Assembly: GCA_964593675.1 (NCBI GenBank)
Contig: CAZQIE010000006.1
Span: 2,449 to 66,448, forward strand
DNA length: 64,000 nucleotides
Reading direction: 5' to 3'
Source: an uncultured Opitutales bacterium
Lineage (GTDB): Bacteria; Verrucomicrobiota; Verrucomicrobiia; Opitutales; CAZQIE01
A model generated the notes under the pieces. It saw only the letters and a program-made list of their open reading frames with translations, searched no databases and had not been told where the DNA came from. Shown here piece after piece: positions 3,471 through 64,000 of this stretch; within the stretch, counting starts at the first letter, position 1; each line of letters opens with the position of its first letter. Both the position numbers and the translations under genes were made by a program.

Positions 3471-3522
3471 TGAGATTCCGGATACACGGAACTAGTTTCA
3501 CCCATTCCTATCGCTTCCGCCC

Positions 3523-4455
3523 ATGGACCAGTCTGAGCTTACGCGCCAGATCCTGAAGAAAGTCCGGCAGGTCGAAATCCGCACAAACCGGCTGGCGGCG
3601 GAAGCTTTGTCCGGGTCCTACCACAGCGTGTTCAAGGGGCAGGGGCTGCATTTTGAGGAAGTCCGCGAATACGCACCGGGCGATGACGTCCGCAGCATTG
3701 ATTGGAATGTCACGGCAAAGATGGACCGGCCGTTTGTGAAGAAATTCCGCGAGGAACGCGAACTCACGCTCATGCTCGTTGTTGACGTCAGCGGCTCCGG
3801 CGCGTTCGGCTCGGCAGACCAGAGCAAGCGGGAACTCGCCGCCGAGCTGGCAAGCGTCCTGGCCTTTTCCGCGACGCGCAACAACGACAAGGTCGGCCTG
3901 TGCCTGTTTACCGACCGCGTGGAGCAGTTCATGCCGCCGCGCAAAGGGCGCAGTCACGTGCTTCGCGTGATCCGCGAAGTCCTGTTCCACGAGCCCCAAG
4001 GTGTGGGCACAAATATCTCCGCCGCGCTGGACCACGTGAACCGCATTCTCAAGCGCCGAGCCGTCGTGTTCCTGCTATCCGATTTCCTCCAGGTCCTCGA
4101 CGGCAAGCTGCCGGTCCCCGGCACGCCAGCCGGCCAGGCGCTATTCCAGGCGCTCGCGCTGACGAACCGGCGTCACGACCTCATAACAGCCGTGTTGTCT
4201 GATCCGCGTGAACTCGAGCTCCCGGAGGTCGGGCTCCTCACGCTTGAGGACGCGGAAACGGGCCAGGTCGTGGAAGTCGACACCTCGACCCCGTCCGTGC
4301 GCAGGCGCTATGCGGAGCAGAACAAGCGCCGACAGGCGGAACTGCGGCGCGGCTTGCGGCAGGCTGGCGTCGACGTGCTCGAGCTTTCCACCGACGCCCC
4401 CTACGTCCTGCCACTCCGCCAATTTTTCGAAAACCGGGCGAAACGTTTCCGATGA
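3523..4455 (+). CDS. DUF58 (vWA-like) protein
   Basis: 310 aa. The motif REYAPGDDVRSIDW is typical of the DUF58 partners of MoxR. The stop overlaps the next start (ATGA). Confidence 0.9.
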   Translation: MDQSELTRQILKKVRQVEIRTNRLAAEALSGSYHSVFKGQGLHFEEVREYAPGDDVRSIDWNVTAKMDRPFVKKFREERELTLMLVVDVSGSGAFGSADQSKRELAAELASVLAFSATRNNDKVGLCLFTDRVEQFMPPRKGRSHVLRVIREVLFHEPQGVGTNISAALDHVNRILKRRAVVFLLSDFLQVLDGKLPVPGTPAGQALFQALALTNRRHDLITAVLSDPRELELPEVGLLTLEDAETGQVVEVDTSTPSVRRRYAEQNKRRQAELRRGLRQAGVDVLELSTDAPYVLPLRQFFENRAKRFR

Positions 4456-5129
4456 CCCGCCGCCGCTCCAGTCTTCGTGTCGCTCTCCTTTGGCTGGCGC
4501 TCGTTCTTCCAGCCGCGGGCCAGCTCATCATCCCTCAAGGGCCCCCGCCAGCGGGCGGACCTGCGGTCGCGCCAGCCGCCGCCCAACCGGTGCCGACGCA
4601 ACAGGAACCGGAAGACGACATCCGCGACATACGCGAGCCCATCCCGCGCACGTTCTGGGAACGCCATGGCCTGGCCGTTTCCGTCGGCTCGGTTGTCGCG
4701 CTTGCGCTTGCAGGGCTGCTTGCGCGGCGGCTCCTGCGCCGTAAGCCCGTCTCCCCGCCGAGCCCCTACGAAATCGCCCGTCGCGAGCTTGAGGCCGCCA
4801 AGGTACTTTGCACGCAGGGCGCTGACGAGGCTCTTGCCCGGGCGTTGTCGGATGCGGTCAGGCGGTATTTGGAAAATGGATACCAGTTGCCCGCGCCCGA
4901 GCGCACGACTGAGGAGTTTTTGGAAGCCCTCGCGCGTGAGTCCCGTTTGCCGAGCGACGCCGCCCGCCTCTTGGGCGAGTTTCTCGCAGCCTGCGACCTC
5001 GCCAAGTTCGCACGCCATGCGTTCCACGACGCCGAACGTGGCGAGCTTTACGCGCGTGCCGTCCGCTTCGTCGATGAGGCCGAGCGGGCCCGCCAGCCCG
5101 TTCACGACGGGAAAGGAGGGGCCTCATGA
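4452..5129 (+). CDS. DUF4381-like membrane protein of the Bat operon
   Basis: 225 aa with a signal/TM segment, a Pro-rich spacer, a second TM and a helical C-terminus. It is ATGA-coupled on both sides and sits in the position usually held by DUF4381 in Bat operons. Confidence 0.7.
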   Translation: MTRRRSSLRVALLWLALVLPAAGQLIIPQGPPPAGGPAVAPAAAQPVPTQQEPEDDIRDIREPIPRTFWERHGLAVSVGSVVALALAGLLARRLLRRKPVSPPSPYEIARRELEAAKVLCTQGADEALARALSDAVRRYLENGYQLPAPERTTEEFLEALARESRLPSDAARLLGEFLAACDLAKFARHAFHDAERGELYARAVRFVDEAERARQPVHDGKGGAS

Positions 5130-6169
5130 ACCTGCTCGGCGGCTTCGAATTCGCGTTTCCACAGGCGCTCTGGCTGCTCCTGCTCCTGCCTGTCCTTGCG
5201 GTGCTCCGCGGGCGCCAGGGACGCCTTGCGGCCGTGCGGTTTTCCAGCACCGCGGTCGCGCGGGAAGTCAGCGGGGTTTCGCGCTCAAGGGCGGGACATT
5301 TCCTGTTCGCATTACGCCTGTTCGCGCTGGCGCTTCTCATTGTCGGACTGGCTCGCCCGCGCCTTGGCCAGGGGCAATCCGATGTCGAGTCGAGTGGCAT
5401 AGATATCGTGCTCGCGGTCGATGTCTCCGGGTCCATGGCCGCGCTGGACTTTTCGGATAACCGCCCACTCACGCGCATCGACGCACTCAAAGTGGTTCTC
5501 GAGGACTTTATACGGAAGCGCAAAAGCGACCGCCTCGGCCTCGTAACTTTCGCCACGCAACCGTACCTCGTGAGCCCGCTCACGCTGAACCACGACTGGC
5601 TCCTCCAGAACCTGCGGCGCATTGACATCGGCCTCATCGACGGTAGCCGCACGGCCATCGGGTCGGCGCTCGGAGTCGCCGTGAACCGGCTGCGCGACCT
5701 CAAGGACGCGAAGAGCCGGGTCGTGGTCCTGCTGACTGATGGCGAGAACAACGCGGGCCGGATAAGCCCCGTGGCTGCGGCGGAAGCGGCGGCAGCCTAT
5801 GGCGTGAGGGTGTACGCGATCGCCGCGGGCAAGTCGGGCCGCGTGATGGTCGCGCAGACGGACCGTGCCGGGCGTGTCCTACGGGATTCGCGTGGTCAGC
5901 CGGTACAGGGTGGCTACGCGGAAACCGGCATTGATGAAAAGACGTTGCAGGAAGTGGCGCGTCTCACCAACGGCCGCTTCTTCCGGGCCGAGGACGCAGG
6001 TTCCCTCGCACGGATTTACGACGAGATCGACAGGCTGGAGCGCACAGAAGTTAAACTCCGCCACTACACGAATTACACGGAACTTTTCTGGGTGCCCGCA
6101 GTCCTCGCACTCACTCTGCTCGGGCTTGAGCAACTGCTGGCCAACACGCGGTACAGGAGGCTGCCATGA
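5126..6169 (+). CDS. batA: BatA-like vWA-domain membrane protein
   Basis: 347 aa with an N-terminal TM (FEFAFPQALWLLLLLP), a vWA MIDAS motif (VDVSGSM) and a C-terminal TM. Confidence 0.9.
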   Translation: MNLLGGFEFAFPQALWLLLLLPVLAVLRGRQGRLAAVRFSSTAVAREVSGVSRSRAGHFLFALRLFALALLIVGLARPRLGQGQSDVESSGIDIVLAVDVSGSMAALDFSDNRPLTRIDALKVVLEDFIRKRKSDRLGLVTFATQPYLVSPLTLNHDWLLQNLRRIDIGLIDGSRTAIGSALGVAVNRLRDLKDAKSRVVVLLTDGENNAGRISPVAAAEAAAAYGVRVYAIAAGKSGRVMVAQTDRAGRVLRDSRGQPVQGGYAETGIDEKTLQEVARLTNGRFFRAEDAGSLARIYDEIDRLERTEVKLRHYTNYTELFWVPAVLALTLLGLEQLLANTRYRRLP

Positions 6170-8283
6170 CCTTCGAGTATCCCATACTGCTCTATCTTTC
6201 CCCAGTCGTCGCCGTGCTGCTCGCGCTGTTTTTTCGCTGGAGTTCGCGGACGCGCGCGCGGCTGCTGGAGCGGTTTGCGGCGTCGCGGCTGCTCCCGGGG
6301 CTGCTGGCCTCCCATAGCCCTGCGATGCGTGCCGTAAAGCACGGTTGCGTGGTGACGGCTGTGCTCCTGATCGTTCTCGCTTTGGCGCGGCCGCAAGTCG
6401 GCTACGAGTGGCGCGAGGTCACCACACGGGGTGTGGATGTCGTGTTTGCCGTGGATGCGTCTCGAAGCATGTTAGCCGAGGACGTCCGTCCGAACCGCCT
6501 CGAGCGTGTGCGCCTGGCGGTGTTCGACCTCCTCCCGCGGCTGAAGGGTGACCGTATCGGGCTCGTCGCCTTTGCGGGAACCTCGTTCCTGCAATGCCCG
6601 CTCACGCTAGACTACGACGCGTTCCGGCAATCACTCGAGGCCGTGGACACCCAGGTCATACCGCAAGGCGGAACAAACATTGGCGCGGCCATCCGTGAGG
6701 CTGTCGAGGCGCTCGGGCCGGGGCAGAATCACAAGGCTGTCGTGCTGCTTACGGATGGCGAGGATCTCGAAGAATCGGCCGTCGAGGCCGCTCGTGAAGC
6801 GGCAAAGGCAGGCGTGGCAGTCTTCACGGTCGGTGTGGGCACCCCGGACGGTGAGCTCATACCCGTGCGGAACGAACGCGGGCAGATTGAGTATGTGCGC
6901 GATGTCGCAGGCCAGATTGTTAAGAGCCGTCTTGACGAGGCCACGCTTCGACGGGTGGCCGAGGCCGCCGGCGGTTTCTATGTTGGCCTTGGCGCCCGGG
7001 GTGAGGGGCTTCAGCAGGCCTATCAGGCTGGCGTCGAGGCTTTGCCTAAGGAGGAGAGCGGGTCCCGCCTTCAGCGCCAGCCCCTGGAACGTTTCCAGTG
7101 GCCCCTGGCTGTGGCGATTGGCCTCCTTGCGCTGGAATCTTTGCTCGGGACGCGCCGGTGGGAGTCACGTCCGCGCCTGGGGCGGTGGTTTGCCCGCGCG
7201 GCCTTGGTGGCGGCCGCGCTAGGCCTCGCTGCGACGGTAGCCCGCGCGGCGGCGCCGGAGGAGGCTCTTCTGTTGTATCAGGAAGGCAAATACGAGGAGG
7301 CCGGTTCGGCTTTTTCAGGCCAGGCAAAGGCCAACCCGAAGGACGCCCGTTTCCCCTACAACGCCGGGGCCAGCCTCTATAGGGCAGGCGACTATAAAGG
7401 CGCCGCCGAGGCCTTTAGCCAGGCTTTGTCGTCCGCAGACTTGTCTTTGCAGCAGAAGGCGTTCTACAACCTCGGCAACGCGCTTTACCGGCAGGGTGTG
7501 GAAGCAAAAAAGGCATCGCCCAAGGAGGCGCTTACGCAGTGGGAAGCGGCACTGAAGTCCTACGACAACGCCCTGGATCTGAAGCGCGACGACGTGGACT
7601 CCAAATATAACCGCGACCTCGTTCAGCGCCGGATTGAAGCGCTCAAGCGTGAGCTGGAGCGGCAGGAAAAGGCCCAAGACGGGCAGGGCGGTGAAAACAA
7701 GGACAAGCAGGACTCGAAGAACGAGGAATCCAAAAATTCGGGAAAGGACTCCCAGAAAGACCAGCAGAAGGGCGGGGGACAGGACGAGGCCCAGAAGGAT
7801 TCGCAGCAAGGGGACAAAGGGAAATCCGGCAATTCGGCGGCGCAGAAGGACAACCAGCCCGGGCAGGGTGAGCCTCAGGAATCCCCGGAAAAATCGGGAG
7901 CACAATCTGGAAAAGACGAAAAGAAACCGGAGGGCGCAGATGAGAACAAGAGTCCCGACAGTCAGTCTGATAAAGACAAACAGGCGCAGAAAGGGCGGGA
8001 GCCTCAGGCCTCTGATAAGCAACAGCCCGCCGCCGGGGCCGACCGGAAAGAGGAGTCCGGGAAGGACGGACAAAAAGGCAAGGGAGATGCCGAGGCTGCC
8101 GCGAAGGCCGCTCAGGAAGCGGGTTCGGAGGCGGATGGCGGGCGTACGGCCGTGGGCGTGATGACCCGGCAGGAAGCTCGACAAATCCTGGAAAGCCTGC
8201 GATCCATGGAACGCAAACTTCCTGTCGTTGCGCCCCGTGTCCTGCCGAGGGCAGAAGGCGACGAAACTCGAAAGGACTGGTGA
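6166..8283 (+). CDS. batB: BatB/BatC-like fusion: vWA domain, TPR repeats and a long charged low-complexity tail
   Basis: 705 aa. It has an N-terminal TM, a vWA domain (VDASRSM), a central TM, TPR-like repeats (YNAGASLYRAGDYKGAAEAF, YNLGNALYRQG) and about 170 aa of K/D/E/Q/G/S-rich sequence. Confidence 0.85.
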   Translation: MTFEYPILLYLSPVVAVLLALFFRWSSRTRARLLERFAASRLLPGLLASHSPAMRAVKHGCVVTAVLLIVLALARPQVGYEWREVTTRGVDVVFAVDASRSMLAEDVRPNRLERVRLAVFDLLPRLKGDRIGLVAFAGTSFLQCPLTLDYDAFRQSLEAVDTQVIPQGGTNIGAAIREAVEALGPGQNHKAVVLLTDGEDLEESAVEAAREAAKAGVAVFTVGVGTPDGELIPVRNERGQIEYVRDVAGQIVKSRLDEATLRRVAEAAGGFYVGLGARGEGLQQAYQAGVEALPKEESGSRLQRQPLERFQWPLAVAIGLLALESLLGTRRWESRPRLGRWFARAALVAAALGLAATVARAAAPEEALLLYQEGKYEEAGSAFSGQAKANPKDARFPYNAGASLYRAGDYKGAAEAFSQALSSADLSLQQKAFYNLGNALYRQGVEAKKASPKEALTQWEAALKSYDNALDLKRDDVDSKYNRDLVQRRIEALKRELERQEKAQDGQGGENKDKQDSKNEESKNSGKDSQKDQQKGGGQDEAQKDSQQGDKGKSGNSAAQKDNQPGQGEPQESPEKSGAQSGKDEKKPEGADENKSPDSQSDKDKQAQKGREPQASDKQQPAAGADRKEESGKDGQKGKGDAEAAAKAAQEAGSEADGGRTAVGVMTRQEARQILESLRSMERKLPVVAPRVLPRAEGDETRKDW

Positions 8284-12459: not shown

Positions 12460-12559
12460 AAAAGGCCAGGCACCCTACGGCACACGCAGATCCTGGTTAC
12501 CGTTGCTCCCTTCCGGGCCTGGCGGGGTTCACCGGTCCAGCGTTGCATAGGACCCGGCC
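12460..12559 (-). ncRNA. ffs: signal recognition particle RNA (small 4.5S type)
   Basis: The reverse strand reads GGCCGGGUCCUAUGCAACGCUGGACCGGUGAACCCCGCCAGGCCCGGAAGGGAGCAACGGUAACCAGGAUCUGCGUGUGCCGUAGGGUGCCUGGCC followed by UUUUU. It has the conserved domain IV (CCAGGCCCGGAAGGGAGCA with a GGAA tetraloop). The GCAACGCU and GCGUGUGCCG segments resemble E. coli 4.5S RNA, and the ends pair with each other. Confidence 0.88.
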
Positions 12560-18265: not shown

Positions 18266-18438
18266 AGGCCGCGCATGCTAGCGAAACCACCGCCCCCGGC
18301 GCAAGGCTCTTCGCCCTCAGCTCCGCCCCGATCCGGCGTGCGGAGAACTCCGCCGTCGGCTCGTTTACGTCACGGCAAGGATCTCGTTTTCAGGCAACAG
18401 GTAGTGGGGCAATTTTACGGGAATGCTTGAAAATAGGT

Positions 18439-18459
18439 GAACATGTGTTCATCTTGTTC
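18439..18459 (+). promoter_or_regulatory. putative LexA (SOS) box, Verrucomicrobia type
   Basis: The sequence GAACA-TG-TGTTC-ATCT-TGTTC contains both a TGTTC-N4-TGTTC direct repeat (18446-18459) and an overlapping GAACA..TGTTC inverted pair. It ends 2 nt before the imuA ATG. Confidence 0.6.
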
Positions 18460-18461
18460 GA

Positions 18462-19229
18462 ATGCCCTTTTTCCCGGCTATAACGCCAGCGCAGGTTCCC
18501 AAGATGGGGCGCGAGCCGCTTTCGCCACAGGCGAAGCGGGAGGTCTGGGCGCGGCTGAAGGCGGGTGGGGTGGGGGGGGGGGTGGGGGCGGGGCGGGGGG
18601 GGGGGGGGGGGGGGGGGGCGCCGGGGCACGGCGGCGAACCGCTGTGGGGCACGGGCGTCCCGTCCGTGGATGAGGCGGGCGGGGGCGGGTTGCCGCGGGG
18701 CGCGCTTTCGGAGGTTGTGGCCGGCGGCCCGGGAGGGCGCGGCGGGCAATCGTTCCTCCTCCGGCTGCTGGAAGCTGCGGCGCGGGCGCTGGCGTATGCT
18801 GCGCTGGTGGACGGTGCCGAGACTTTTGACCCGCAGTCGGCCCCGGTGGGTCCGCTCAAACACCTGCTCTGGGTGCGGTGTGGCGGAAGCCCGACTCGTG
18901 CCCTGCAGGCGGCGGACTTGCTGCTGCGCGATGAAAATTTTGCGCTCGTGGCGGTGGACCTGCGCGGGTGCGCAGAGCGCGAACTCCGGCGCATCGCGGC
19001 GACGGCATGGCACCGGCTCCAGCGGGTCGCGGAGGAAAGCGGCTCGATCGGCGTGGTCTTTTCCACGCACGCGCAGGTGCCCAGCGCCGCCCTGCGCCTC
19101 GAACTCACATCACGACTGACCCTGAACCTGCTCGATGCGACCGGGGACGCGGTCACACACGCCTTGGGCGTCCACGTGCTGCGACGTCGCGGTAACTTTA
19201 GGGACGGGCAGGAGGCGCGCGCGGGATAA
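18462..19229 (+). CDS. imuA: ImuA-like (RecA-fold) component of the imuA-imuB-dnaE2 mutagenesis cassette
   Basis: 255 aa. The motif TGVPSVDEAGGGGLPRGALSEVV matches the ImuA signature (tG...lD..L.GGlprG.l.E.). The gene sits immediately upstream of imuB and dnaE2 and contains an in-frame poly-Gly stretch encoded by the G tract. Confidence 0.75.
   Translation: MPFFPAITPAQVPKMGREPLSPQAKREVWARLKAGGVGGGVGAGRGGGGGGGAPGHGGEPLWGTGVPSVDEAGGGGLPRGALSEVVAGGPGGRGGQSFLLRLLEAAARALAYAALVDGAETFDPQSAPVGPLKHLLWVRCGGSPTRALQAADLLLRDENFALVAVDLRGCAERELRRIAATAWHRLQRVAEESGSIGVVFSTHAQVPSAALRLELTSRLTLNLLDATGDAVTHALGVHVLRRRGNFRDGQEARAG
18563..18618 (+). repeat. near-pure G tract (G4,G11,G5,G4,G24) inside imuA
   Basis: My direct count gives an uninterrupted G24 run at 18595-18618 and a G11 run at 18572-18582. 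Only 5 non-G bases occur in 56 nt. Confidence 0.95.
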
Positions 19230-19377
19230 CGGGAGGGCCCCCGCGAGCGAAACCCCGCCGCAGAAGGCGGAAGCATGGGGGGCATACCCTTCTGCTCCGG
19301 TTGCGCCCTGTGGGCGCGGATAAGCCGGACAGATCCAAAGGGGAAGAACGCGCACTCGGAACGAACACCCATCGCCG

Positions 19378-20847
19378 ATGATGAAATTCGCCGCCATTTA
19401 TGCGCCGCACTTCCCGCTTCAGGCTGTGCTGAGGCTGGAGGCGGGGTTGCGGCAGGTGCCCGTGGCCTTGCTGGAAGAAGCCAGCCGCACGGCCCGGGTC
19501 ACCGCGCTTACGGACTCAGCCCGGGCCGCCGGGGTGCGGGAGGGCATGACGGCCGCGCAGGCGGCGGGGCGTTGTCCCGGTCTCGCCGCGCGCTTGCGCT
19601 CCGCCGAAGCCGAGGCCGCCGCGGCGCGCGTATTACTGGCGGGGGCGCTCACCGTGTCTCCCCGCGTGGAAGTCACCGCTCCGGGCGTGTGTACGGTCTC
19701 TCTCGCGGGCTTGCCCGAGGGTGCGCCGGAAAGGCTCACGAAGAAGGCGCTCGGCCGGCTCGCGGGCGTAGGGCTTTCAGTCCGCGCGGGGTTGGCAACC
19801 TCCGCCGGGCTCGCCCGCCAGGCTGCCCGGGTGGCCGCGCCGCTGCTTGTCGTCGCGGATGTCCCCGCCTTTCTTGCCGCACTCCCCATTGCTCGCATGG
19901 GCGCCTCGGCGGACCTTCTAGAAGTCCTGCATGCCTGGGGGCTGCACACCCTGGGGGCGCTCGCCGCGCTGCCCCGCGACGACGTTGCCCAGCGCCTTGG
20001 CGACGAAGCGCTGGCATTGTGGGACGACGCGCACGGGCAAGACCGCCGCCCTCTGACTCATGCGGCGCTCCCTGATGATTTTGAGGAGACGCTCGAACTG
20101 GAAGACCCGGTCGAGACGCTTGAGCCGCTCCTCTTCCTCCTGCGCCGGATGCTCGGGGCGCTCGTCCTGCGCCTGCAGGCCGCCTACCGCGTCGCTGCGG
20201 ACCTCAGCCTCACCCTGCGCCTCGACAGCGGCCCGCCCCACGAGCGCAGTTTCCGCCTGCCAGAGCCGACCGCGCAACCCGACCTCTTGCTCCGCGTGCT
20301 GCACGCGCATCTGGAGCAGGTCCGCACGGATGCGCCTGTCGTGGCGCTGCGCCTGCGCGTGGAGCCCGCACCCCTCCAGTTCCGCCAACAGGGCCTGTTC
20401 GAGACGGCGCTCAAAAATCCGGCGCGCCTGCAGGAAACGCTCGACCGGCTGACTGGCCTGGTTGGCTCGCAGAACGCCGGGTGTCCCCGGGCTCTGCCGA
20501 CGCGAAGGCCCGACGCGTTCACGTTGGAACCGTTGGCCGATGCCGCCGCTTCAGCCGCCCCCGAAGCCGGCCTTCCCCCGGGTCTGGCGCTGCGCCGCCT
20601 GCGCCCACCCGCGCCCGCACGGGTCCGCGCCGAAGCCGAGGCCCCGCCAACCCGCCTGGAAAGCGCCGTTGCGAGCGGCACCATTTGCGACACCCGCGGC
20701 CCCTGGCATGTCTCTGGGGACTGGTGGCTCCCGCCAGCCCAGTCCTGGAGCCGCACCGAGTGGGACGCCGCGCTTGAAGACGGCGTCCTTCTGCGCCTCG
20801 TGCATACGCCCAACGGGCAATGGTGGGTGGAGGGCTTTTATGACTGA
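19378..20847 (+). CDS. imuB: ImuB, Y-family polymerase-like protein
   Basis: 489 aa. The N-terminus MMKFAAIYAPHFPLQAVLRLE is typical of ImuB. The stop overlaps the dnaE2 start. Confidence 0.85.
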   Translation: MMKFAAIYAPHFPLQAVLRLEAGLRQVPVALLEEASRTARVTALTDSARAAGVREGMTAAQAAGRCPGLAARLRSAEAEAAAARVLLAGALTVSPRVEVTAPGVCTVSLAGLPEGAPERLTKKALGRLAGVGLSVRAGLATSAGLARQAARVAAPLLVVADVPAFLAALPIARMGASADLLEVLHAWGLHTLGALAALPRDDVAQRLGDEALALWDDAHGQDRRPLTHAALPDDFEETLELEDPVETLEPLLFLLRRMLGALVLRLQAAYRVAADLSLTLRLDSGPPHERSFRLPEPTAQPDLLLRVLHAHLEQVRTDAPVVALRLRVEPAPLQFRQQGLFETALKNPARLQETLDRLTGLVGSQNAGCPRALPTRRPDAFTLEPLADAAASAAPEAGLPPGLALRRLRPPAPARVRAEAEAPPTRLESAVASGTICDTRGPWHVSGDWWLPPAQSWSRTEWDAALEDGVLLRLVHTPNGQWWVEGFYD

Positions 20848-23800
20848 CGGCGCGTCTTACGTCGAACTGCACGCCCGGAGCGCCTTCAGCTTCCTGCGTG
20901 CAGGCTCCGGGCCGGAGGCGCTGGTGCGTGCCGCCGCACAGGCGGGGCTGCCCGCGCTGGCGCTCTGTGACCGCAATGGTGTGTATGGCACGGCACGCTT
21001 TCATTCGGCGGCAAAGGAGCAAGGCTTTCGGCCTATCGTCGGCGCGGAGCTCGCGATGGAGGACGGGAGCGCGCTTCCGGTGCTCGTGGAGACACCCGAG
21101 GGTTACCGGAACCTGTGCCGCCTGATGACGAACGCCCAGCTTCGCGCGGAAAAGGGGGCCGCCCGCGTCACGTGGGCTGAGCTTCCCGGATACACCGCCG
21201 GGCTCGTGGCGCTGACGGGCGACGAGGAAGGCCCGGTGCCCGCCGCACTCGAACGGGGAGGCCCTGCGGCTGCCGTGGATGTAGTTAAAACCCTGATACA
21301 CGCCTTCGGGAGCGAGCGTCTTTTCGTGGAGGTGCAGCGCCATCACGTCCGCGGGGAGGAACGGCGGGTGCGGGCGCTCGTGGCGCTCGCCCAGGCACAG
21401 GGGCTGCCGCTGATTGCCACAAACGGCGTGGCCTACGCGGTCCCGGAACACCGCGAGGTTTTGGACGCCTTCACCTGCCTGCGCCATAAAACCCACCTCG
21501 ACGCCGCAGGGCTCCTCCTCCAGCCAAACGCCGAACGCCATGTAAAGACACCGCAGGCCATGGCAGCCCTTTTTGCGGATCTACCCGAGGCTGTCTCGAA
21601 TACCGCACGCCTTGCTGATCGCCTCGCTTTCACGCTCGAAAACCTCGGCTACCAGTTTCCCGAATACCCGGTGCCGCCCGGTGAGACCCAGGATTCCTTC
21701 CTGCGCAAGATGACGTGGTTTGGCGCGGAGCAACGCTACGGCGCCATCACGCCCCCCGTTCGCGCCCAGCTTGAACACGAACTCGCCCTCATTGCCCGCC
21801 TCGGCTTCTCCGGCTACTTTCTCGTTGTTTGGGACATCGTGAACTTCTGCCGCGAGGCCGCTGTGATGGTGCAGGGACGCGGCAGCGCCGCAAACAGCGC
21901 CGTTTGCTACAGCCTCGGCATCACCGCGGTGGACCCGATCGGCAGCAAACTCCTCTTCGAACGTTTCCTCTCCGAAGGCCGCACGAGCTGGCCCGACATC
22001 GACCTCGACCTCCCCAGCGGCGACCGCCGCGAGCGCGTGATCCAGGAAATGTACCGGCGCTACGGGCCCCGCGGCGTCGCGATGACCGCGAACGTCATCA
22101 CCTACCGCGGGCGCAGTGCCATCCGCGACCTCGGCAAGGCCCTTAACCTGCCGCCTGAGCACCTTGACCGCTTTTCGCGCCTCTACGCCAGCGGGGACTT
22201 TCCGCACACGCTCGGGCTTGAGGAACAGCTTCACGCCGCAGGCCTTCCAACCTCCCACCCACGGGTTCCCGCGCTCATGCGCCTCTATGCCGCTGCCTAT
22301 GGGCTCCCGCGGCACCTCGGGCAGCACTCGGGCGGCATGATCCTCTGTCGCGGAAATCTGGATACGGTGGTGCCGCTCGAAAACGCCTCCATGCCCGGGC
22401 GCGTCGTCGCCCAGTGGGACAAGGACGACTGCGAGGACCTCGGTCTCGTAAAGGTCGACCTCCTCGGCCTCGGCATGATGGCCGTCATGCAGGACGCCCT
22501 TGAACTCACCCGCGTGCGGGGGCGTCCCGTGGACCTCGCCCATATCCCAAAGGACGACGCGGCCACGTTCTCCATGATGTGCGAAGCCGACACGATCGGC
22601 GTCTTCCAGATCGAGAGCCGTGCCCAGATGGCCACCCTCCCGCGCATGCAGCCCAGGAGCTTCTACGACGTCGTGGTCGAGGTCGCGATCATCCGGCCTG
22701 GCCCGATTCAGGGAAACCTCGTCCACCCCTATCTGGAGCGCCGCGCCGGGCGCGCACCCATTGATTACATCCTCCCCGAAATCCGCCCCATCCTCGAACG
22801 CACGCTGGGCGTCCCGCTCTTTCAGGAGCAGGTGCTGAAGATCGCCATGGTCGTCGCCGGCTTTTCCGGCGCAGAGGCCGAGGAACTGCGGCGGGCCCTC
22901 GGTTTCAAGCGCAACAACGACCGCATGGACCGCGTACTGCGCAAGCTGCGTGCGTCCATGGCCGCACGGGGCGTGCCGGGCGAGGCCGCGGCGAAAATCG
23001 AAGCCTCCATCCAGTCCTTCGCCCTTTACGGGTTCCCGGAAAGCCACGCCATCAGCTTTGCCCTCATCGCCTACGGCAGCGCCTGGATGAAGGTCCACCG
23101 CACGGCGGAGTTCTACGCCGGCCTCCTCAACAACCAGCCCATGGGCTTTTACTCGCGCGCCACGCTTGTGCAGGACGCCCGCCGCCACGGCCTGCGGATT
23201 CTCCCGCCCTGCATCGCGCTGTCCGACTGGCCCTGCACGGTGGTGGACGACCACACAGTCCGCCTCGGCCTCCTCTCCCTGCGCGGGCTGCGCCGCGAAA
23301 CCTGCGCGTCCATGCTGGCCGCGCGCGAGACACGCCCCTTCCGCTCTGTATCCGATTTTCTGAGACGCACGGCTTTTTCCCCCGAAGACCTCCGCACCCT
23401 CGCCGCAACCGGCACCCTCAACGCCCTTGCCGGCGACCGCCGCCGCGCCCTCTGGGCCGTCACCACACCCACGCGTGGGTTCGACCTCTTTCACGCCGCC
23501 GAGGATGTGGCTGACATGGCTTCCACCGAAGCACGGGAAGCTCCGCCCGATGATGCCGATCTTGCAGCCGGGCTCCGCGCGGCCGCCGAAGCCGCTGCTG
23601 GAGCCAACCGGAAGACCTCCCAGTGCGCCTGCCCGCTGCCCGACATGACGCCCGAGGAGCGCCTGCGCGCCGACTACGCGGGGCTTGGCCTCACCGTTGG
23701 CGCGCACCCCATGGCTCACCTCCGCGCCCAATTCCCCGGCATCCTCACCGCAAGCGCCCTCAAAGCCGCTTCACATGGGGCCTACGGCGTCATCGCGGGT

Positions 23801-24058
23801 GCTGTCATTTGTCGCCAACGCCCCGGCACGGCAAAAGGCTTTGTGTTTGTCTCCCTTGAAGACGAAACCGGCATAGCCAACGCCATTGTCTCGCCGCAAC
23901 TCTTCGAGCGCCAACGCCTCGTCATCACACAGGAAACCTTCCTCCGCATTTCCGGCCGCATCCAGAACATCGACGGCGTCCCCTGCCTCAAAGCAAACAC
24001 GGTCGAACCTCTTTTTGCAGACCCGCTCCCAGCCGCCACGTCTCACGACTTCCATTGA
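20840..24058 (+). CDS. dnaE2: error-prone DNA polymerase III alpha subunit DnaE2
   Basis: The PHP-domain start is MTDGASYVELHARSAFSFLRAGS, and the protein shows a polymerase core and an OB fold. I trimmed the track ORF start (20462) to the ATG at 20840, which lies in the same frame. Confidence 0.93.
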   Translation: MTDGASYVELHARSAFSFLRAGSGPEALVRAAAQAGLPALALCDRNGVYGTARFHSAAKEQGFRPIVGAELAMEDGSALPVLVETPEGYRNLCRLMTNAQLRAEKGAARVTWAELPGYTAGLVALTGDEEGPVPAALERGGPAAAVDVVKTLIHAFGSERLFVEVQRHHVRGEERRVRALVALAQAQGLPLIATNGVAYAVPEHREVLDAFTCLRHKTHLDAAGLLLQPNAERHVKTPQAMAALFADLPEAVSNTARLADRLAFTLENLGYQFPEYPVPPGETQDSFLRKMTWFGAEQRYGAITPPVRAQLEHELALIARLGFSGYFLVVWDIVNFCREAAVMVQGRGSAANSAVCYSLGITAVDPIGSKLLFERFLSEGRTSWPDIDLDLPSGDRRERVIQEMYRRYGPRGVAMTANVITYRGRSAIRDLGKALNLPPEHLDRFSRLYASGDFPHTLGLEEQLHAAGLPTSHPRVPALMRLYAAAYGLPRHLGQHSGGMILCRGNLDTVVPLENASMPGRVVAQWDKDDCEDLGLVKVDLLGLGMMAVMQDALELTRVRGRPVDLAHIPKDDAATFSMMCEADTIGVFQIESRAQMATLPRMQPRSFYDVVVEVAIIRPGPIQGNLVHPYLERRAGRAPIDYILPEIRPILERTLGVPLFQEQVLKIAMVVAGFSGAEAEELRRALGFKRNNDRMDRVLRKLRASMAARGVPGEAAAKIEASIQSFALYGFPESHAISFALIAYGSAWMKVHRTAEFYAGLLNNQPMGFYSRATLVQDARRHGLRILPPCIALSDWPCTVVDDHTVRLGLLSLRGLRRETCASMLAARETRPFRSVSDFLRRTAFSPEDLRTLAATGTLNALAGDRRRALWAVTTPTRGFDLFHAAEDVADMASTEAREAPPDDADLAAGLRAAAEAAAGANRKTSQCACPLPDMTPEERLRADYAGLGLTVGAHPMAHLRAQFPGILTASALKAASHGAYGVIAGAVICRQRPGTAKGFVFVSLEDETGIANAIVSPQLFERQRLVITQETFLRISGRIQNIDGVPCLKANTVEPLFADPLPAATSHDFH

Positions 24059-24091: not shown

Positions 24092-24174
24092 TGCCCGGGA
24101 TGGGGGTCGAACCCACACGGCCTTACGGCCAGCGGATTTTAAGTCCGCAGCGTCTGCCATTCCGCCACCCGGGC
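24092..24174 (-). tRNA. tRNA-Leu (anticodon TAA)
   Basis: The reverse strand reads GCCCGGGTGGCGGAATGGCAGACGCTGCGGACTTAAAATCCGCTGGCCGTAAGGCCGTGTGGGTTCGACCCCCATCCCGGGCA. It has a 7-bp acceptor stem, the anticodon loop CTTAAAA, a long variable arm and a T-loop. Confidence 0.9.
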
Positions 24175-25607: not shown

Positions 25608-26498
25608 ATGTTGACTCGCTATACTACACACCCGCGCAGGCTCACGGCGAAGCTGTCTGCTGTTACCCTTGCCGCAACCCTCGCAGCTGCCAGCAGCACC
25701 TACGCTGCCCTCTGCTTTGAGGAGACGTTCAATTACACGGGCGCTTTGCACGGTCAGGCCGGAACGGGCATCGGCGAAACCGGCAACTGGACCTCGAGCC
25801 GCACGACGTCCTCGCTCGTCGCTGGCACGTCGCCGTCCCTCACCTATGGAAGCCTGACCACGTCGAACAACCGTCTCGTTTCAGACTACGATGGCTTCGG
25901 AACGAACGACAACACCTACGTGACGTTGGATACTACGGCGGGCAAGGCGGGGGCTGTCCTCAATACGGACGCGACCTCGCAATGGATGAGCCTGATCGTC
26001 AAGACGCCGACCGCCTTCCAGGCCAGCCGAGGCTTTTCGCTTTATACCGACCGCGGTAGCACGTTTAAGTACTGGGGCTTCTCGATCAACGGGGACGGCA
26101 CGTGGAACACGTTTGTCAATGCTACCAGCAGCGCCGCGGGCAGCGCGTTGACCGCAAACACGACCTACCTGTTTCTGTTCAAGGTGACCCGCACCAACAA
26201 TTCCAGCTACACGATTGAAGGCTGGAATTACAGCGGCGGCACGATCCCCGGCTCAGATCCGACGAGCGGCCTTACTGCCACGGGCGCAGGCGGCTCGACG
26301 AACAATATCGTCAATCTGTTTTTGAGCGCCACGAACGCAGGTCAGGGTGCCATGAACCAATACGAAGTTGACGAACTCCGCATCGGCTCAACGTTGGCTG
26401 ACGTGACACCCGTTCCCGAGCCCTCCACCTTTGCCGCGATGGCCGGTGCCGCAGCCCTTGCCTTTGCAGCGGGCCGCCGCTTCCTGCGTCGCTCGTAA
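25608..26498 (+). CDS. PEP-CTERM sorting-domain secreted protein
   Basis: 296 aa with a signal peptide, a Thr/Ser/Gly/Asn-rich beta-type body and the C-terminal VPEPSTFAAMAGAAALAFAAGRRFLRRS (PEP motif, TM segment, basic tail). Confidence 0.8.
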   Translation: MLTRYTTHPRRLTAKLSAVTLAATLAAASSTYAALCFEETFNYTGALHGQAGTGIGETGNWTSSRTTSSLVAGTSPSLTYGSLTTSNNRLVSDYDGFGTNDNTYVTLDTTAGKAGAVLNTDATSQWMSLIVKTPTAFQASRGFSLYTDRGSTFKYWGFSINGDGTWNTFVNATSSAAGSALTANTTYLFLFKVTRTNNSSYTIEGWNYSGGTIPGSDPTSGLTATGAGGSTNNIVNLFLSATNAGQGAMNQYEVDELRIGSTLADVTPVPEPSTFAAMAGAAALAFAAGRRFLRRS

Positions 26499-31072: not shown

Positions 31073-31148
31073 TGGAGCCGGGGGTGGGACTCGAACCCAC
31101 GACCTACTGATTACAAATCAGTTGCTCTGCCAACTGAGCTAACCCGGC
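31073..31148 (-). tRNA. tRNA-Thr (anticodon TGT)
   Basis: The reverse strand reads GCCGGGTTAGCTCAGTTGGCAGAGCAACTGATTTGTAATCAGTAGGTCGTGGGTTCGAGTCCCACCCCCGGCTCCA. It has the anticodon loop TTTGTAA and an encoded CCA. There is one mismatch at the base of the acceptor stem. Confidence 0.85.
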
Positions 31149-61289: not shown

Positions 61290-63977
61290 CTACTCCACCA
61301 GCGCCTTGAGGTCCGCAAGACTCACGCGCGCGTTCGCTGCTTCCGAAGCCTCGAACAGGTCCGACAAGAGCGTCGCCTTGCTGCGCTGGAGCCCGAGGAC
61401 CTTTTCCTCCACAGTGCCGGCCGCAATCAGCTTGTAGCTCGTAACCACGCGGGTCTGCCCAATGCGGTGGGCGCGGTCGGTCGCCTGCGCCTCGACGGCA
61501 GGGTTCCACCACGGGTCGAAGTGTACCACGGTGTCTGCGCCTGTAAGATTCAAGCCCGTGCCGCCCGCCTTCAGTGAAATCAGGAAGACAGGGACGGACG
61601 CGTCATTGTTGAAGCGGTCGCACACGGCCTGGCGGTCGCGCGTCTGGCCATCAAGGTAGCAGAACGGCAGACTCTGCGCCTCCAGATCCTCCTGGATCAG
61701 CTTGAGCACCGAAACGAATTGGGAAAACACGAGGATACGGTGGCCGCCGTCCAGCGCTTCTTCCAGGATTTCGCGGAAGGCCCGCAGCTTGGCGGAATCG
61801 TCGGCACCAGCCTTGGGCTCGAGCAGGCGCGGGTCTGCGCAGACCTGCCGCAGGCGCGTGAGCTGGTTCAGCGCCGCTAGCCGCAGGCGGCCGTCGCTTG
61901 CTCCGCCCATCTCCATCTCGAAGATGGCCTTACGCGTGGCCTCCTGAACGTCCCGGTAAATCGCGGCCTGCGTGCCTTCGAGCTCACAGAACACCGTCTG
62001 CTCGATTTTCTCGGGAAGCTCGGGCGCAACCACGGTTTTTGCGCGCCGCAGGATGTACGGGGCCGCGCGCCGCCGCACCTGCTCGTCCTGCCAGTCACGG
62101 TCCGGCTTCGTGCGTTCCGTCATGGGACGCGGCAGGTAACCCGGCATCAGGAAATCGAAGAGCGATCGCAGATCCTCGACGCTGTTCTCAATGGGCGTGC
62201 CCGTGAGCACCACGCGCCCACGTGCCCGCAGGCTCCGCAGCGCGCGCGCGTTCTGCGTCTGGCGGTTCTTCACGTGCTGCGCCTCGTCCGCAACCGCGCA
62301 AAGCCACGTCACCGACTGGAAAAGCTGGGCGTCCCGCGAAAGCGTGGCATAGGACGTCACCACGATGCCCGCGGCTTCCAGCGCGGCCTCGCTGTCCGCG
62401 CGGTTTTCGCGGTGGTGCACAAAAACCGGTATCTCGGGAGCAAAGCGTCGCGCCTCGCGCCGCCAGTTTTCCACCAGACTTGCGGGGCACACCACGAGCA
62501 GCGGGCCGGACTGCCCTGCGGATCGCAGGCACGAAAACAGGGCCAGCGCCTGAGCTGTTTTACCAAGGCCCATCTCGTCCGCGAGGATGCCGGCAAGCTC
62601 GTTCTGGAACAGGTGCCAGAGCCACGCGACACCAAGCTTCTGATAGCCGCGCAACACCGCGCGAAGCGGCTCAGGGAGCGGGGGCGTTGGCAGTCGTGAA
62701 ATGTCTTTGAGCGCCCCGCTCCGTGCCTTCCACTGTTCCGGCGGGATGAGCGGCACCCCCATTTCTTCAAGGATGGACTCGACGGGCGCAAGGTCGGCTG
62801 TCTTCAGGCGCCGTTGGTAGCTCGGCGAGGCCGGACGCATCCCGTCGGAACTGAGGGCGCGTTGCGCCGCCGCGAGTTTCTCCACCGTTGCTGGTGCGAT
62901 CAGGACGGCACCTTCCTGCGTCATGAGATACGGGGTGCCGCGGGCCAGGGCGTCGCGCACTTCGTCCTCGGCTGCGCCCGGCGCGTGCAGGCGCACGTCC
63001 ACCGCGAAACCGGCGGCATCGGCGGCGGCCTCACCTTTCAGCTCGGCGAACTTCAGTGAAGCCGTCCGTTGCGCGAAATTGTCCGTGAACTGCGCCCGGT
63101 ATGTGTTCCGGAGCGTCTCCCAATGCTTCGCGAGGAACGACAGCACGCGGTGCCTGTCGCGGAGCCACCATTTGCGGCTCGTAGGTTCAAGCTGGAATCC
63201 CTCTCCCTTTACGAGCCCGAGTGCCTTCTCATAGATCACGCTTTCCTTCGAAGGCAACTGGATGGACAGAAACTGCGTTGACCCGTCGACAATCATGCCT
63301 GACGGCGCGTTGGCGGACTCCCAGCGCCGCTTCTCCTCAACGGGAGCGGCGCCACGAGACGCATCCTGTGTCCGGGCAGCCGCCGCCGGGGCCGCCCCGG
63401 GAGCGGCTTGCGGGGCGGCTTTGGCCTCAAGCATCGCGTGGACCTGCGGTATGCGCCCATTCTCCCAGCGCAGCGGCGCGGATTCACCGGAGCCCACATG
63501 CACGACCGGAAGGTCCTCCACTGCCTTGAGCAGGCAGCGCAGCCGGTCACGGGTCAATTGCAGCATCCCGTGCAGTTTGCCGCCGCACCAGGACTCCACC
63601 CAGCCCGCCACGGCCTGGAAAGGGGGCGCCATGCGATACGCGCGGCCACGGTCAAGCTTCTCCGGGGCGACAACCTTTGTCTCCAGCAGCGCCTCCAGCT
63701 TCACCATGATCGCATCCTTGGGAGCTGTCTGGGCAAGGTTCGGCGCCAACACGATCCGGAAGGCCAACGGCAGCCCACGGCCTTCAGAGACGACCAGCGA
63801 CTTCATTTTCGGCGCCACAACCGCTTCGGCTTCGGGCTCCTTGGGGGCCGGTGCCTCCGCATTGCCTGGGGCAAGTCCAAGCGCCTCTGCCGTTGAAAGC
63901 GCTCCACGAGCGGGCGCGGCGACCTGTGAGGGGGGCGGCGGCGGGGTGGGGGGCGTTGCCGCCTTCCTGGGTGCCAC
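61290..63977 (-). CDS. SNF2-family DEAD/H helicase with a long N-terminal region of about 400 aa
   Basis: It has LADEMGLGKT (motif I), DEAQHVKN (motif II) and a helicase C domain (GGTGLNLTGADTVVHFDPWWNP, QATDRAHRIGQ). The listed start is a GTG. The frame stays open to base 64000, so the true N-terminus may lie outside the window. Confidence 0.88.
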   Translation of the reverse strand: MAPRKAATPPTPPPPPSQVAAPARGALSTAEALGLAPGNAEAPAPKEPEAEAVVAPKMKSLVVSEGRGLPLAFRIVLAPNLAQTAPKDAIMVKLEALLETKVVAPEKLDRGRAYRMAPPFQAVAGWVESWCGGKLHGMLQLTRDRLRCLLKAVEDLPVVHVGSGESAPLRWENGRIPQVHAMLEAKAAPQAAPGAAPAAAARTQDASRGAAPVEEKRRWESANAPSGMIVDGSTQFLSIQLPSKESVIYEKALGLVKGEGFQLEPTSRKWWLRDRHRVLSFLAKHWETLRNTYRAQFTDNFAQRTASLKFAELKGEAAADAAGFAVDVRLHAPGAAEDEVRDALARGTPYLMTQEGAVLIAPATVEKLAAAQRALSSDGMRPASPSYQRRLKTADLAPVESILEEMGVPLIPPEQWKARSGALKDISRLPTPPLPEPLRAVLRGYQKLGVAWLWHLFQNELAGILADEMGLGKTAQALALFSCLRSAGQSGPLLVVCPASLVENWRREARRFAPEIPVFVHHRENRADSEAALEAAGIVVTSYATLSRDAQLFQSVTWLCAVADEAQHVKNRQTQNARALRSLRARGRVVLTGTPIENSVEDLRSLFDFLMPGYLPRPMTERTKPDRDWQDEQVRRRAAPYILRRAKTVVAPELPEKIEQTVFCELEGTQAAIYRDVQEATRKAIFEMEMGGASDGRLRLAALNQLTRLRQVCADPRLLEPKAGADDSAKLRAFREILEEALDGGHRILVFSQFVSVLKLIQEDLEAQSLPFCYLDGQTRDRQAVCDRFNNDASVPVFLISLKAGGTGLNLTGADTVVHFDPWWNPAVEAQATDRAHRIGQTRVVTSYKLIAAGTVEEKVLGLQRSKATLLSDLFEASEAANARVSLADLKALVE

Positions 63978-64000
63978 GGTGGCACCCTTGCGCTCAAACT

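Follow-up and report, generated by a model that had tools for sequence, protein, structure and literature searches.

The first gene of an imuA-imuB-dnaE2 cassette carries an uninterrupted run of 24 G within its reading frame. This raises the question of whether the run is real and, if it is, whether it acts as a selected on/off switch on inducible mutagenesis or is an expansion that the protein tolerates. The tract was analyzed within its window, which is the whole 64-kb stretch of DNA under study, and in comparison with related genes and loci.

Sequence of the tract and its gene

The tract (18563-18618) is 56 nt long and contains 51 G; the remaining bases are 3 T (18566, 18571 and 18583) and 2 C (18589 and 18594). 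Read in order it is G3 T G4 T G11 T G5 C G4 C G24, which gives an imperfect 5' part and a pure 3' run (Table 1). Sequence inspection and a scripted scan confirmed both the G24 and the surrounding 56-nt G-rich block that had been reported in the initial annotation. The next longest homopolymer in the window is the G11 at 18572-18582, which belongs to the same tract, followed by runs of 8 nt, so the earlier description of the G24 as the most extreme homopolymer in the window holds. Outside of the tract, all G runs in the window are 6 nt or shorter, and the richest other 56-nt stretch contains 34 G. The number of G24 runs expected from base composition is about 3e-8 for the 64-kb window at 64.3% G+C. 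The in-frame translation of the tract, AGGVGGGVGAGRGGGGGGGAPGHGG, was reproduced from the ORF at 18462-19229, where it forms residues 34-58 and is followed by EPLWGTGVPSVDEAGGGGLPRGALSEVV.

The plus strand is C-rich overall, with a GC skew of -0.05 in the window and -0.047 around the cassette; therefore, the G-tract opposes the local strand bias. This skew is no more than a hint that the cassette may lie on the lagging strand. No direct or inverted repeats flank the tract beyond its own self-similarity, and a mobile element or templated insertion was dropped as its origin for this reason. An Rfam scan returned no known RNA element at the imuA locus, so the tract was also not assigned to any such element.

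The best NCBIfam match of the ORF is ImuA_translesion (NF033429), with 36.1 bits and an E value of 6e-9, spanning residues 59-244 on model positions 13-181. The curated whole-protein cut-off of this model is 150 bits. Since the score is far below the cut-off, the protein is termed ImuA-like and not a member of the NF033429 equivalog, and it is placed by its sequence in a divergent verrucomicrobial clade. With this wording, the imuA identity proposed earlier is supported by the best NCBIfam match, the RecA-like fold (see below) and the presence of imuB and dnaE2 downstream. The ATGCCC start is common to this ORF and its closest relative (L001). Two minus-strand ORFs (18390-19070 and 18449-19372), which correspond to the poly-Pro reading, were rejected as real genes because it is the plus-strand ORF for which a RecA fold and clear homologues among ImuA proteins were found.

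The gene heads an imuA-imuB-dnaE2 cassette, which is the gene order of the ImuA/ImuA' class. The ATG of dnaE2 at 20840 overlaps the stop codon of imuB (ATGA, 20840-20847), suggesting translational coupling of these two genes. In contrast, imuA and imuB are separated by a gap of 148 nt (19230-19377). A scan of the plus strand near imuA for sigma-70 promoters and terminators gave nothing useful. The imuA-like gene shares the RecA-like core, the gene order and the imuB/dnaE2 overlap with ImuA/ImuA' of the ImuA-ImuB-DnaE2 (ImuABC) mutasome, along with a LexA-box-like palindrome upstream and an N-terminal helix before the core. It differs in its low score (36 bits against the 150-bit cut-off) and in a Gly-rich insertion that takes the place of the basic part of the helix.

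The LexA-box-like palindrome upstream of imuA, GTGAAC-N4-GTTCA, is the single exact match to this pattern in the 64-kb window. The pattern GTGAAC-N4-GTTCA(C/T) is found at the equivalent site 5' of imuA in L001 (Opitutaceae) and L037 (Puniceicoccaceae), and in L002 with one mismatch. This conserved palindrome fits putative control of imuA by LexA as part of the SOS response, and at the sequence level it is consistent with the initial assignment of imuA as an SOS gene. Another type of palindrome, TGTTC-N4-GAACA, occurs 5' of imuA in 15 other verrucomicrobial loci (e.g. L005, L013 and L022), which are mostly labelled Chthoniobacterales or uncultured Verrucomicrobiae. The loci with the GAAC-N4-GTTC type, namely the window, L001, L037 and (one mismatch) L002, are all Opitutaceae- or Puniceicoccaceae-like. 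These patterns suggest that there may be two LexA-box types inside one phylum.

In the surroundings of the cassette, Rfam places a tRNA gene on the minus strand (24092-24174), 34 nt 3' of the dnaE2 stop and opposite in orientation, as well as a second tRNA (31076-31148) and a bacterial small SRP RNA (12461-12559), both also on the minus strand. A DUF58 / BatA / VWA-domain gene cluster that resembles an aerotolerance operon is located upstream of the cassette (3496-8280), and the gene at 25608-26498 encodes a protein with a PEP-CTERM-like C-terminal tail; both are ordinary for a Verrucomicrobiota chromosome.

Table 1. Positions in the window of the poly-G tract, the features around it and the genes of the cassette
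Feature	Position	Strand	Remarks
LexA-box-like palindrome GTGAAC-N4-GTTCA	18437-18451	.	GTGAACATGTGTTCA; 10 nt 5' of the imuA start codon
imuA-like CDS	18462-19229	+	255 aa; NF033429 E 6e-9, RecA fold, homologues
N-terminal basic helix coding region	18522-18563	+	Residues 21-34, SPQAKREVWARLKA; AF2 helix 22-34; subgroup HMM residues 21-32
Imperfect G-rich 5' part of the tract	18563-18594	+	G3 T G4 T G11 T G5 C G4 C; translated as GGVGGGVGAG, then base 1 of CGG (Arg)
Predicted disordered linker	18567-18629	+	Residues 36-56; AF2 pLDDT < 50
Uninterrupted G24	18595-18618	+	Bases 2 and 3 of CGG (Arg), seven GGG (Gly) and base 1 of GCG (Ala)
RecA-like core	18642-19205	+	Residues 61-248; pLDDT mostly > 90; family HMM; Foldseek
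imuB, inactive Y-family polymerase homologue	19378-20847	+	Pfam IMS and IMS_C; homologues named ImuB by their sources
dnaE2, error-prone DNA polymerase	20840-24058	+	NF004225, 1183 bits (cut-off of 939 bits exceeded)

Protein architecture and reading frame

The AlphaFold2 (AF2) model of the ImuA-like protein was built from 27 sequences and has a mean pLDDT of 82. The match to the family HMM (216 bits) covers residues 61-249 and leaves the N-terminus unaligned. In a Foldseek search of the PDB, each of the top 50 matches is RecA, the best with an E value of 2.3e-11 and a probability of 1.0, which assigns a RecA fold to the core. When aligned with 26 homologues, the core retains all family-invariant residues. 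Every one of these homologues lacks the tract, which represents an inserted or replaced segment directly 5' of the conserved xTGxxxxDE..GGGLPRGAL motif.

MAFFT placed the N-terminus differently, and the placement was settled by a subgroup HMM with frame and shuffle controls. This HMM was made from the N-termini of the eight closest relatives and has the consensus ..KLAaFaRLRRQLDAR... It matches SPQAKREVWARL (residues 21-32) with 8.8 bits in the frame of the core, compared to -10.9 and -2.9 bits in the other frames, and none of 1000 shuffled sequences reached 8.8 bits (maximum 4.9). Since the match occurs only in the core frame, one reading frame spans the helix, the tract and the core, and the assembly represents the "ON" state. 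The alignment, the AF2 model and the subgroup HMM agree with the earlier placement of the tract between the ImuA N-terminus and the conserved core.

The subgroup HMM match stops at ARL, and the G-rich block begins where the relatives have the basic second half of the helix (RRQLDAR), so that the tract overwrites roughly 10 conserved helix residues in this region. An equivalent basic patch is reported to be functionally important in M. smegmatis ImuA (bioRxiv 10.64898/2026.08.14.744951). The lost basic residues suggest that the ImuA-like protein may be altered or impaired even when the tract is in frame.

The position of the RecA Walker-A lysine (GPESSGKT) is a Gly in the ImuA-like protein, within residues 88-97 (GGPGGRGGQS, 18723-18752). 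By alignment, this position is Gly or Ser in the verrucomicrobial homologues (e.g. SSGGQL and SAGSAS), and only the preceding G94 is invariant. In contrast to M. xanthus ImuA as it is characterized in PMC11002988, the ImuA-like clade may lack ATPase activity.

Origin of the tract and effects of a change in length

The longest Gly run in the ImuA-like protein is 7 residues, compared to 3 or fewer in 119 other listed ImuA homologues. At 75 genome loci the homopolymers in the imuA ORF are 8 nt or shorter (7 nt or shorter in the linker), and the longest homopolymer in 114 fetched related loci (736 kb) is 8 nt. Since none exceeds 8 nt elsewhere, the tract is unique to this genome among the listed homologues and loci. 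Its absence from the more distant orthologues (26 aligned and 119 listed homologues, 114 loci) neither confirms nor refutes variability in its length. Among the listed protein, genome-contig and metagenome-contig matches, identity to the nearest ImuA is about 53% and to the nearest ImuB 49%, and the named relatives belong to Opitutaceae (Opitutus, Synoicihabitans and Rariglobus). No close relative or second assembly was found among the matches listed in the ImuA and ImuB protein, genome-contig and metagenome searches. The metagenome-contig scan gave no full-length ImuA match above 40% identity, contig look-ups with the exact proteins of ImuA, ImuB and the adjacent aminotransferase were empty, and the exact ImuA protein has a single occurrence in the protein database search.

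Codon usage across the tract region is strongly biased. GGG makes up 14/17 of the Gly codons, compared to 22.8% in the long ORFs of the window, where GGC makes up 51% (P = 3e-7). This excess of GGG points to a homopolymer process at the DNA level instead of selection for glycine, and selection for a poly-Gly peptide was ruled out on this basis. The linkers of the closest relatives are G/C- or G/A-rich at this location, with a G fraction of 0.33-0.44. The L001 linker encodes ARGGRGAGPRAPG, which may be compared with GAGRG...GAPG in the ImuA-like protein of the window. The G-rich linkers of the relatives are a plausible seed or substrate for expansion. The combination of an imperfect 5' part and a pure 3' run resembles a microsatellite that would have aged at one end while remaining active at the other.

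A frameshift simulation was used to predict the effect of changes in tract length. Changes of 3 nt in either direction leave ImuA intact and affect only the length of the linker. With +1 or -2 nt, translation ends at about 70 aa, and with -1 or +2 nt the product is a 218-aa nonsense protein. All gains or losses of 1 or 2 nt abolish the core in silico, which bears out the earlier claim that a one-base change would uncouple the N-terminus from the RecA-like domain. The first canonical in-frame start 3' of the G24 is GTG at 18666 (residue 69). This codon is past the nearly invariant T64/G65 and inside the conserved motif; therefore, there is no obvious rescue start. A downstream start that would put the tract in the 5' UTR was rejected because of the position of this GTG and because the N-terminal helix matches the relatives only in frame 0.

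The best explanation, which is held with about even confidence, is that the tract is a genuine expansion generated by slippage in a tolerant disordered linker, leaving imuA hypermutable by frameshift but not shown to be a selected switch. Slipped-strand mispairing would expand simple sequence in the poorly conserved linker between the helix and the core. While in frame, the tract would be translated as a floppy Gly-rich linker, which may be tolerable at this position even though the basic second half of the helix is replaced. The tract would make imuA hypermutable, such that changes of 3 nt would shift only the linker length and other changes would uncouple the helix from the core and yield the 70-aa or 218-aa non-functional product. 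In studied organisms, SOS mutagenesis requires ImuA, ImuB and DnaE2 together. Since all three are required, inducible mutagenesis would be lost from cells with an out-of-frame tract. A G-quadruplex or R-loop formed by the G-rich coding strand and its mRNA would probably also reduce expression. Instability of the tract, heterogeneity of the population and an effect on phenotype would be expected to follow. The tract is regarded as a tolerated and possibly transient expansion, and as a candidate hypermutable site instead of a selected or demonstrated switch. A tract that is real but only tolerated would still be a homopolymer of unusual length for a coding sequence, and it would gauge how large a Gly-rich insertion can be absorbed by the helix-core linker of a RecA-like protein.

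The alternative that survives best is that the run, or most of its length, is an artefact of sequencing or assembly due to homopolymer miscalling, PCR stutter, G-rich read errors or a mis-join, and is in frame by chance. This is considered unlikely, but it carries real weight. Long G runs are known error-prone sites, and two-color Illumina chemistry reads a missing signal as G. The caution raised in the initial annotation about assembly and base-calling errors at long homopolymers stands. The sequence comes from a singleton draft or MAG contig in one assembly, and nothing comparable occurs in the 119 other listed homologues or the 114 related loci. The tract also replaces conserved helix residues, no sequencing platform readily gives an exact length for a run of this kind, and an in-frame length is a 1-in-3 event by chance. 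In addition, G24 is far longer than natural phase-variable tracts (PMC4085013), and in Campylobacter long tracts are biased towards deletion (PMC4085013), which makes it hard to explain how a G24 would persist over the long term.

However, the tract has unique homologous gene sequence in the same frame on both flanks, and it is internally structured instead of being an abrupt pure run. Poly-G that results from dark cycles sits at the 3' ends of reads, and a correct in-frame continuation would not be expected after it. There is no further anomalous homopolymer or broken long gene in the 64 kb, and comparable MAG contigs (736 kb) have no runs longer than 8 nt. Since the core invariants are kept and the long genes of the window are intact, the assembly is not generally prone to homopolymer errors. 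The same 736 kb indicates that genuine long runs are very rare in related genomes; evidently, real and artefactual runs of such length are both very rare here. If the run is an artefact, it serves as a warning that in-frame poly-G can sit unflagged in MAG genes.

Comparison with phase-variable loci and quadruplex elements

A second alternative is that the tract is a selected contingency locus, in which stochastic ON/OFF switching of imuA splits the population by inducible mutagenesis, with possible negative feedback. This is improbable. In its geometry the tract matches an intragenic phase-variable tract exactly. A slippable repeat (G24) lies within the CDS, and the assembly is in the ON frame. 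In silico, the number of repeats switches the functional product and frameshifts abolish the protein. The accounts of the mutasome in PMC10421592 and PMC11002988 describe ImuA as needed for its function. In mycobacteria, UV-induced -1 frameshifts in homo-oligonucleotide runs arise mainly through DnaE2 (PMC9346131), and because DnaE2 promotes homopolymer frameshifts, it may be speculated that an active mutasome could destabilize its own gene. However, the tract is absent from all relatives compared, which gives no indication that it has been maintained over the long term. A G24 would switch so often that the gene would approach a lottery with a 1/3 chance of being ON and would not hold a heritable state. 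Organisms that use contingency loci usually carry many, and no other SSR-bearing gene is present in the 64-kb window. None of the papers found in a full-text literature search describes a homopolymer switch in imuA.

Should the tract be real and length-polymorphic in the natural population, the mutasome itself would be phase-variable and would form a second-order contingency locus separating cells that are able to mutate under stress from those that are not, in which an active mutasome could preferentially switch itself off and mutagenesis would be self-limiting. This is given only an outside chance. A real and variable tract would turn inducible mutagenesis from a uniform SOS output into a stochastic trait that is heritable but reversible. 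It would represent a new mode of evolvability regulation and the first homopolymer switch reported for the imuA-imuB-dnaE2 cassette.

Known phase-variable systems resemble the imuA tract in position and mechanism. The hpuA/hmbR genes of Neisseria meningitidis and the poly-G genes of Campylobacter jejuni likewise contain a homopolymeric G run in the ORF near the 5' end, and slipped-strand mispairing is the expected mechanism at poly-G/poly-C phase-variable loci and in imuA. The known tracts are typically about 7-17 nt and have been modelled or assayed at G5-G13 (PMC4085013), whereas the imuA tract has a G24 in a 56-nt G-rich block and is about twice as long as the characterized phase-variable poly-G tracts. 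The known loci mostly have surface or restriction-modification functions, whereas imuA encodes an SOS mutagenesis factor. A genome also carries many of the known loci, and strains are polymorphic at them, whereas the imuA tract is found in one assembly and in no relative.

Genes of high-GC bacteria can also be silenced reversibly by homopolymer frameshifts, e.g. at the 7C run of glpK in M. tuberculosis and at "frameshift scars"; there, as would hold for imuA, a G/C homopolymer in the coding sequence toggles the gene. Translesion polymerases are implicated in the generation of these frameshifts (PMC9346131). These runs are short (3-9 nt) and documented by population sequencing, whereas the imuA run is 24 nt and documented in one assembly.

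The G-quadruplex (G4) potential suggested in the initial annotation is extreme in silico. The tract contains at least four G runs of at least 3 nt with short loops, and its G4Hunter score (25-nt window) peaks at 3.8, which is the maximum of the 64-kb window. With G4 folding enabled, ViennaRNA predicts three tandem quadruplexes in the minimum-free-energy structure, at -240 kcal/mol compared to -128 kcal/mol without it. That the tract is primarily a structural or regulatory G4 or R-loop element, throttling imuA and perhaps the operon independently of frameshifting, is nevertheless very improbable: these predictions, the position of the site in the operon's first gene, about 100-160 nt from the start of that gene, and the inhibition of translation by rG4s that PMC10801317 describes for M. 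tuberculosis are in its favor, but four short G runs would suffice without a G24, the tract is absent from all relatives compared, and so unstable a homopolymer would be a poor regulatory element. As a side effect, the tract is likely to dampen expression to some extent. A feedback loop in which G4-induced replication stalling acts on this SOS gene, as was also proposed, is pure speculation.

The second highest G4Hunter score in the window (2.76) is at 63925-63958, which is also its second most G-rich site (...GAGGGGGGCGGCGGCGGGGTGGGGGGCG...). This site is antisense to the 5' part of an ORF for a SNF2-family helicase on the minus strand (61293-63998), which runs off the end of the window.
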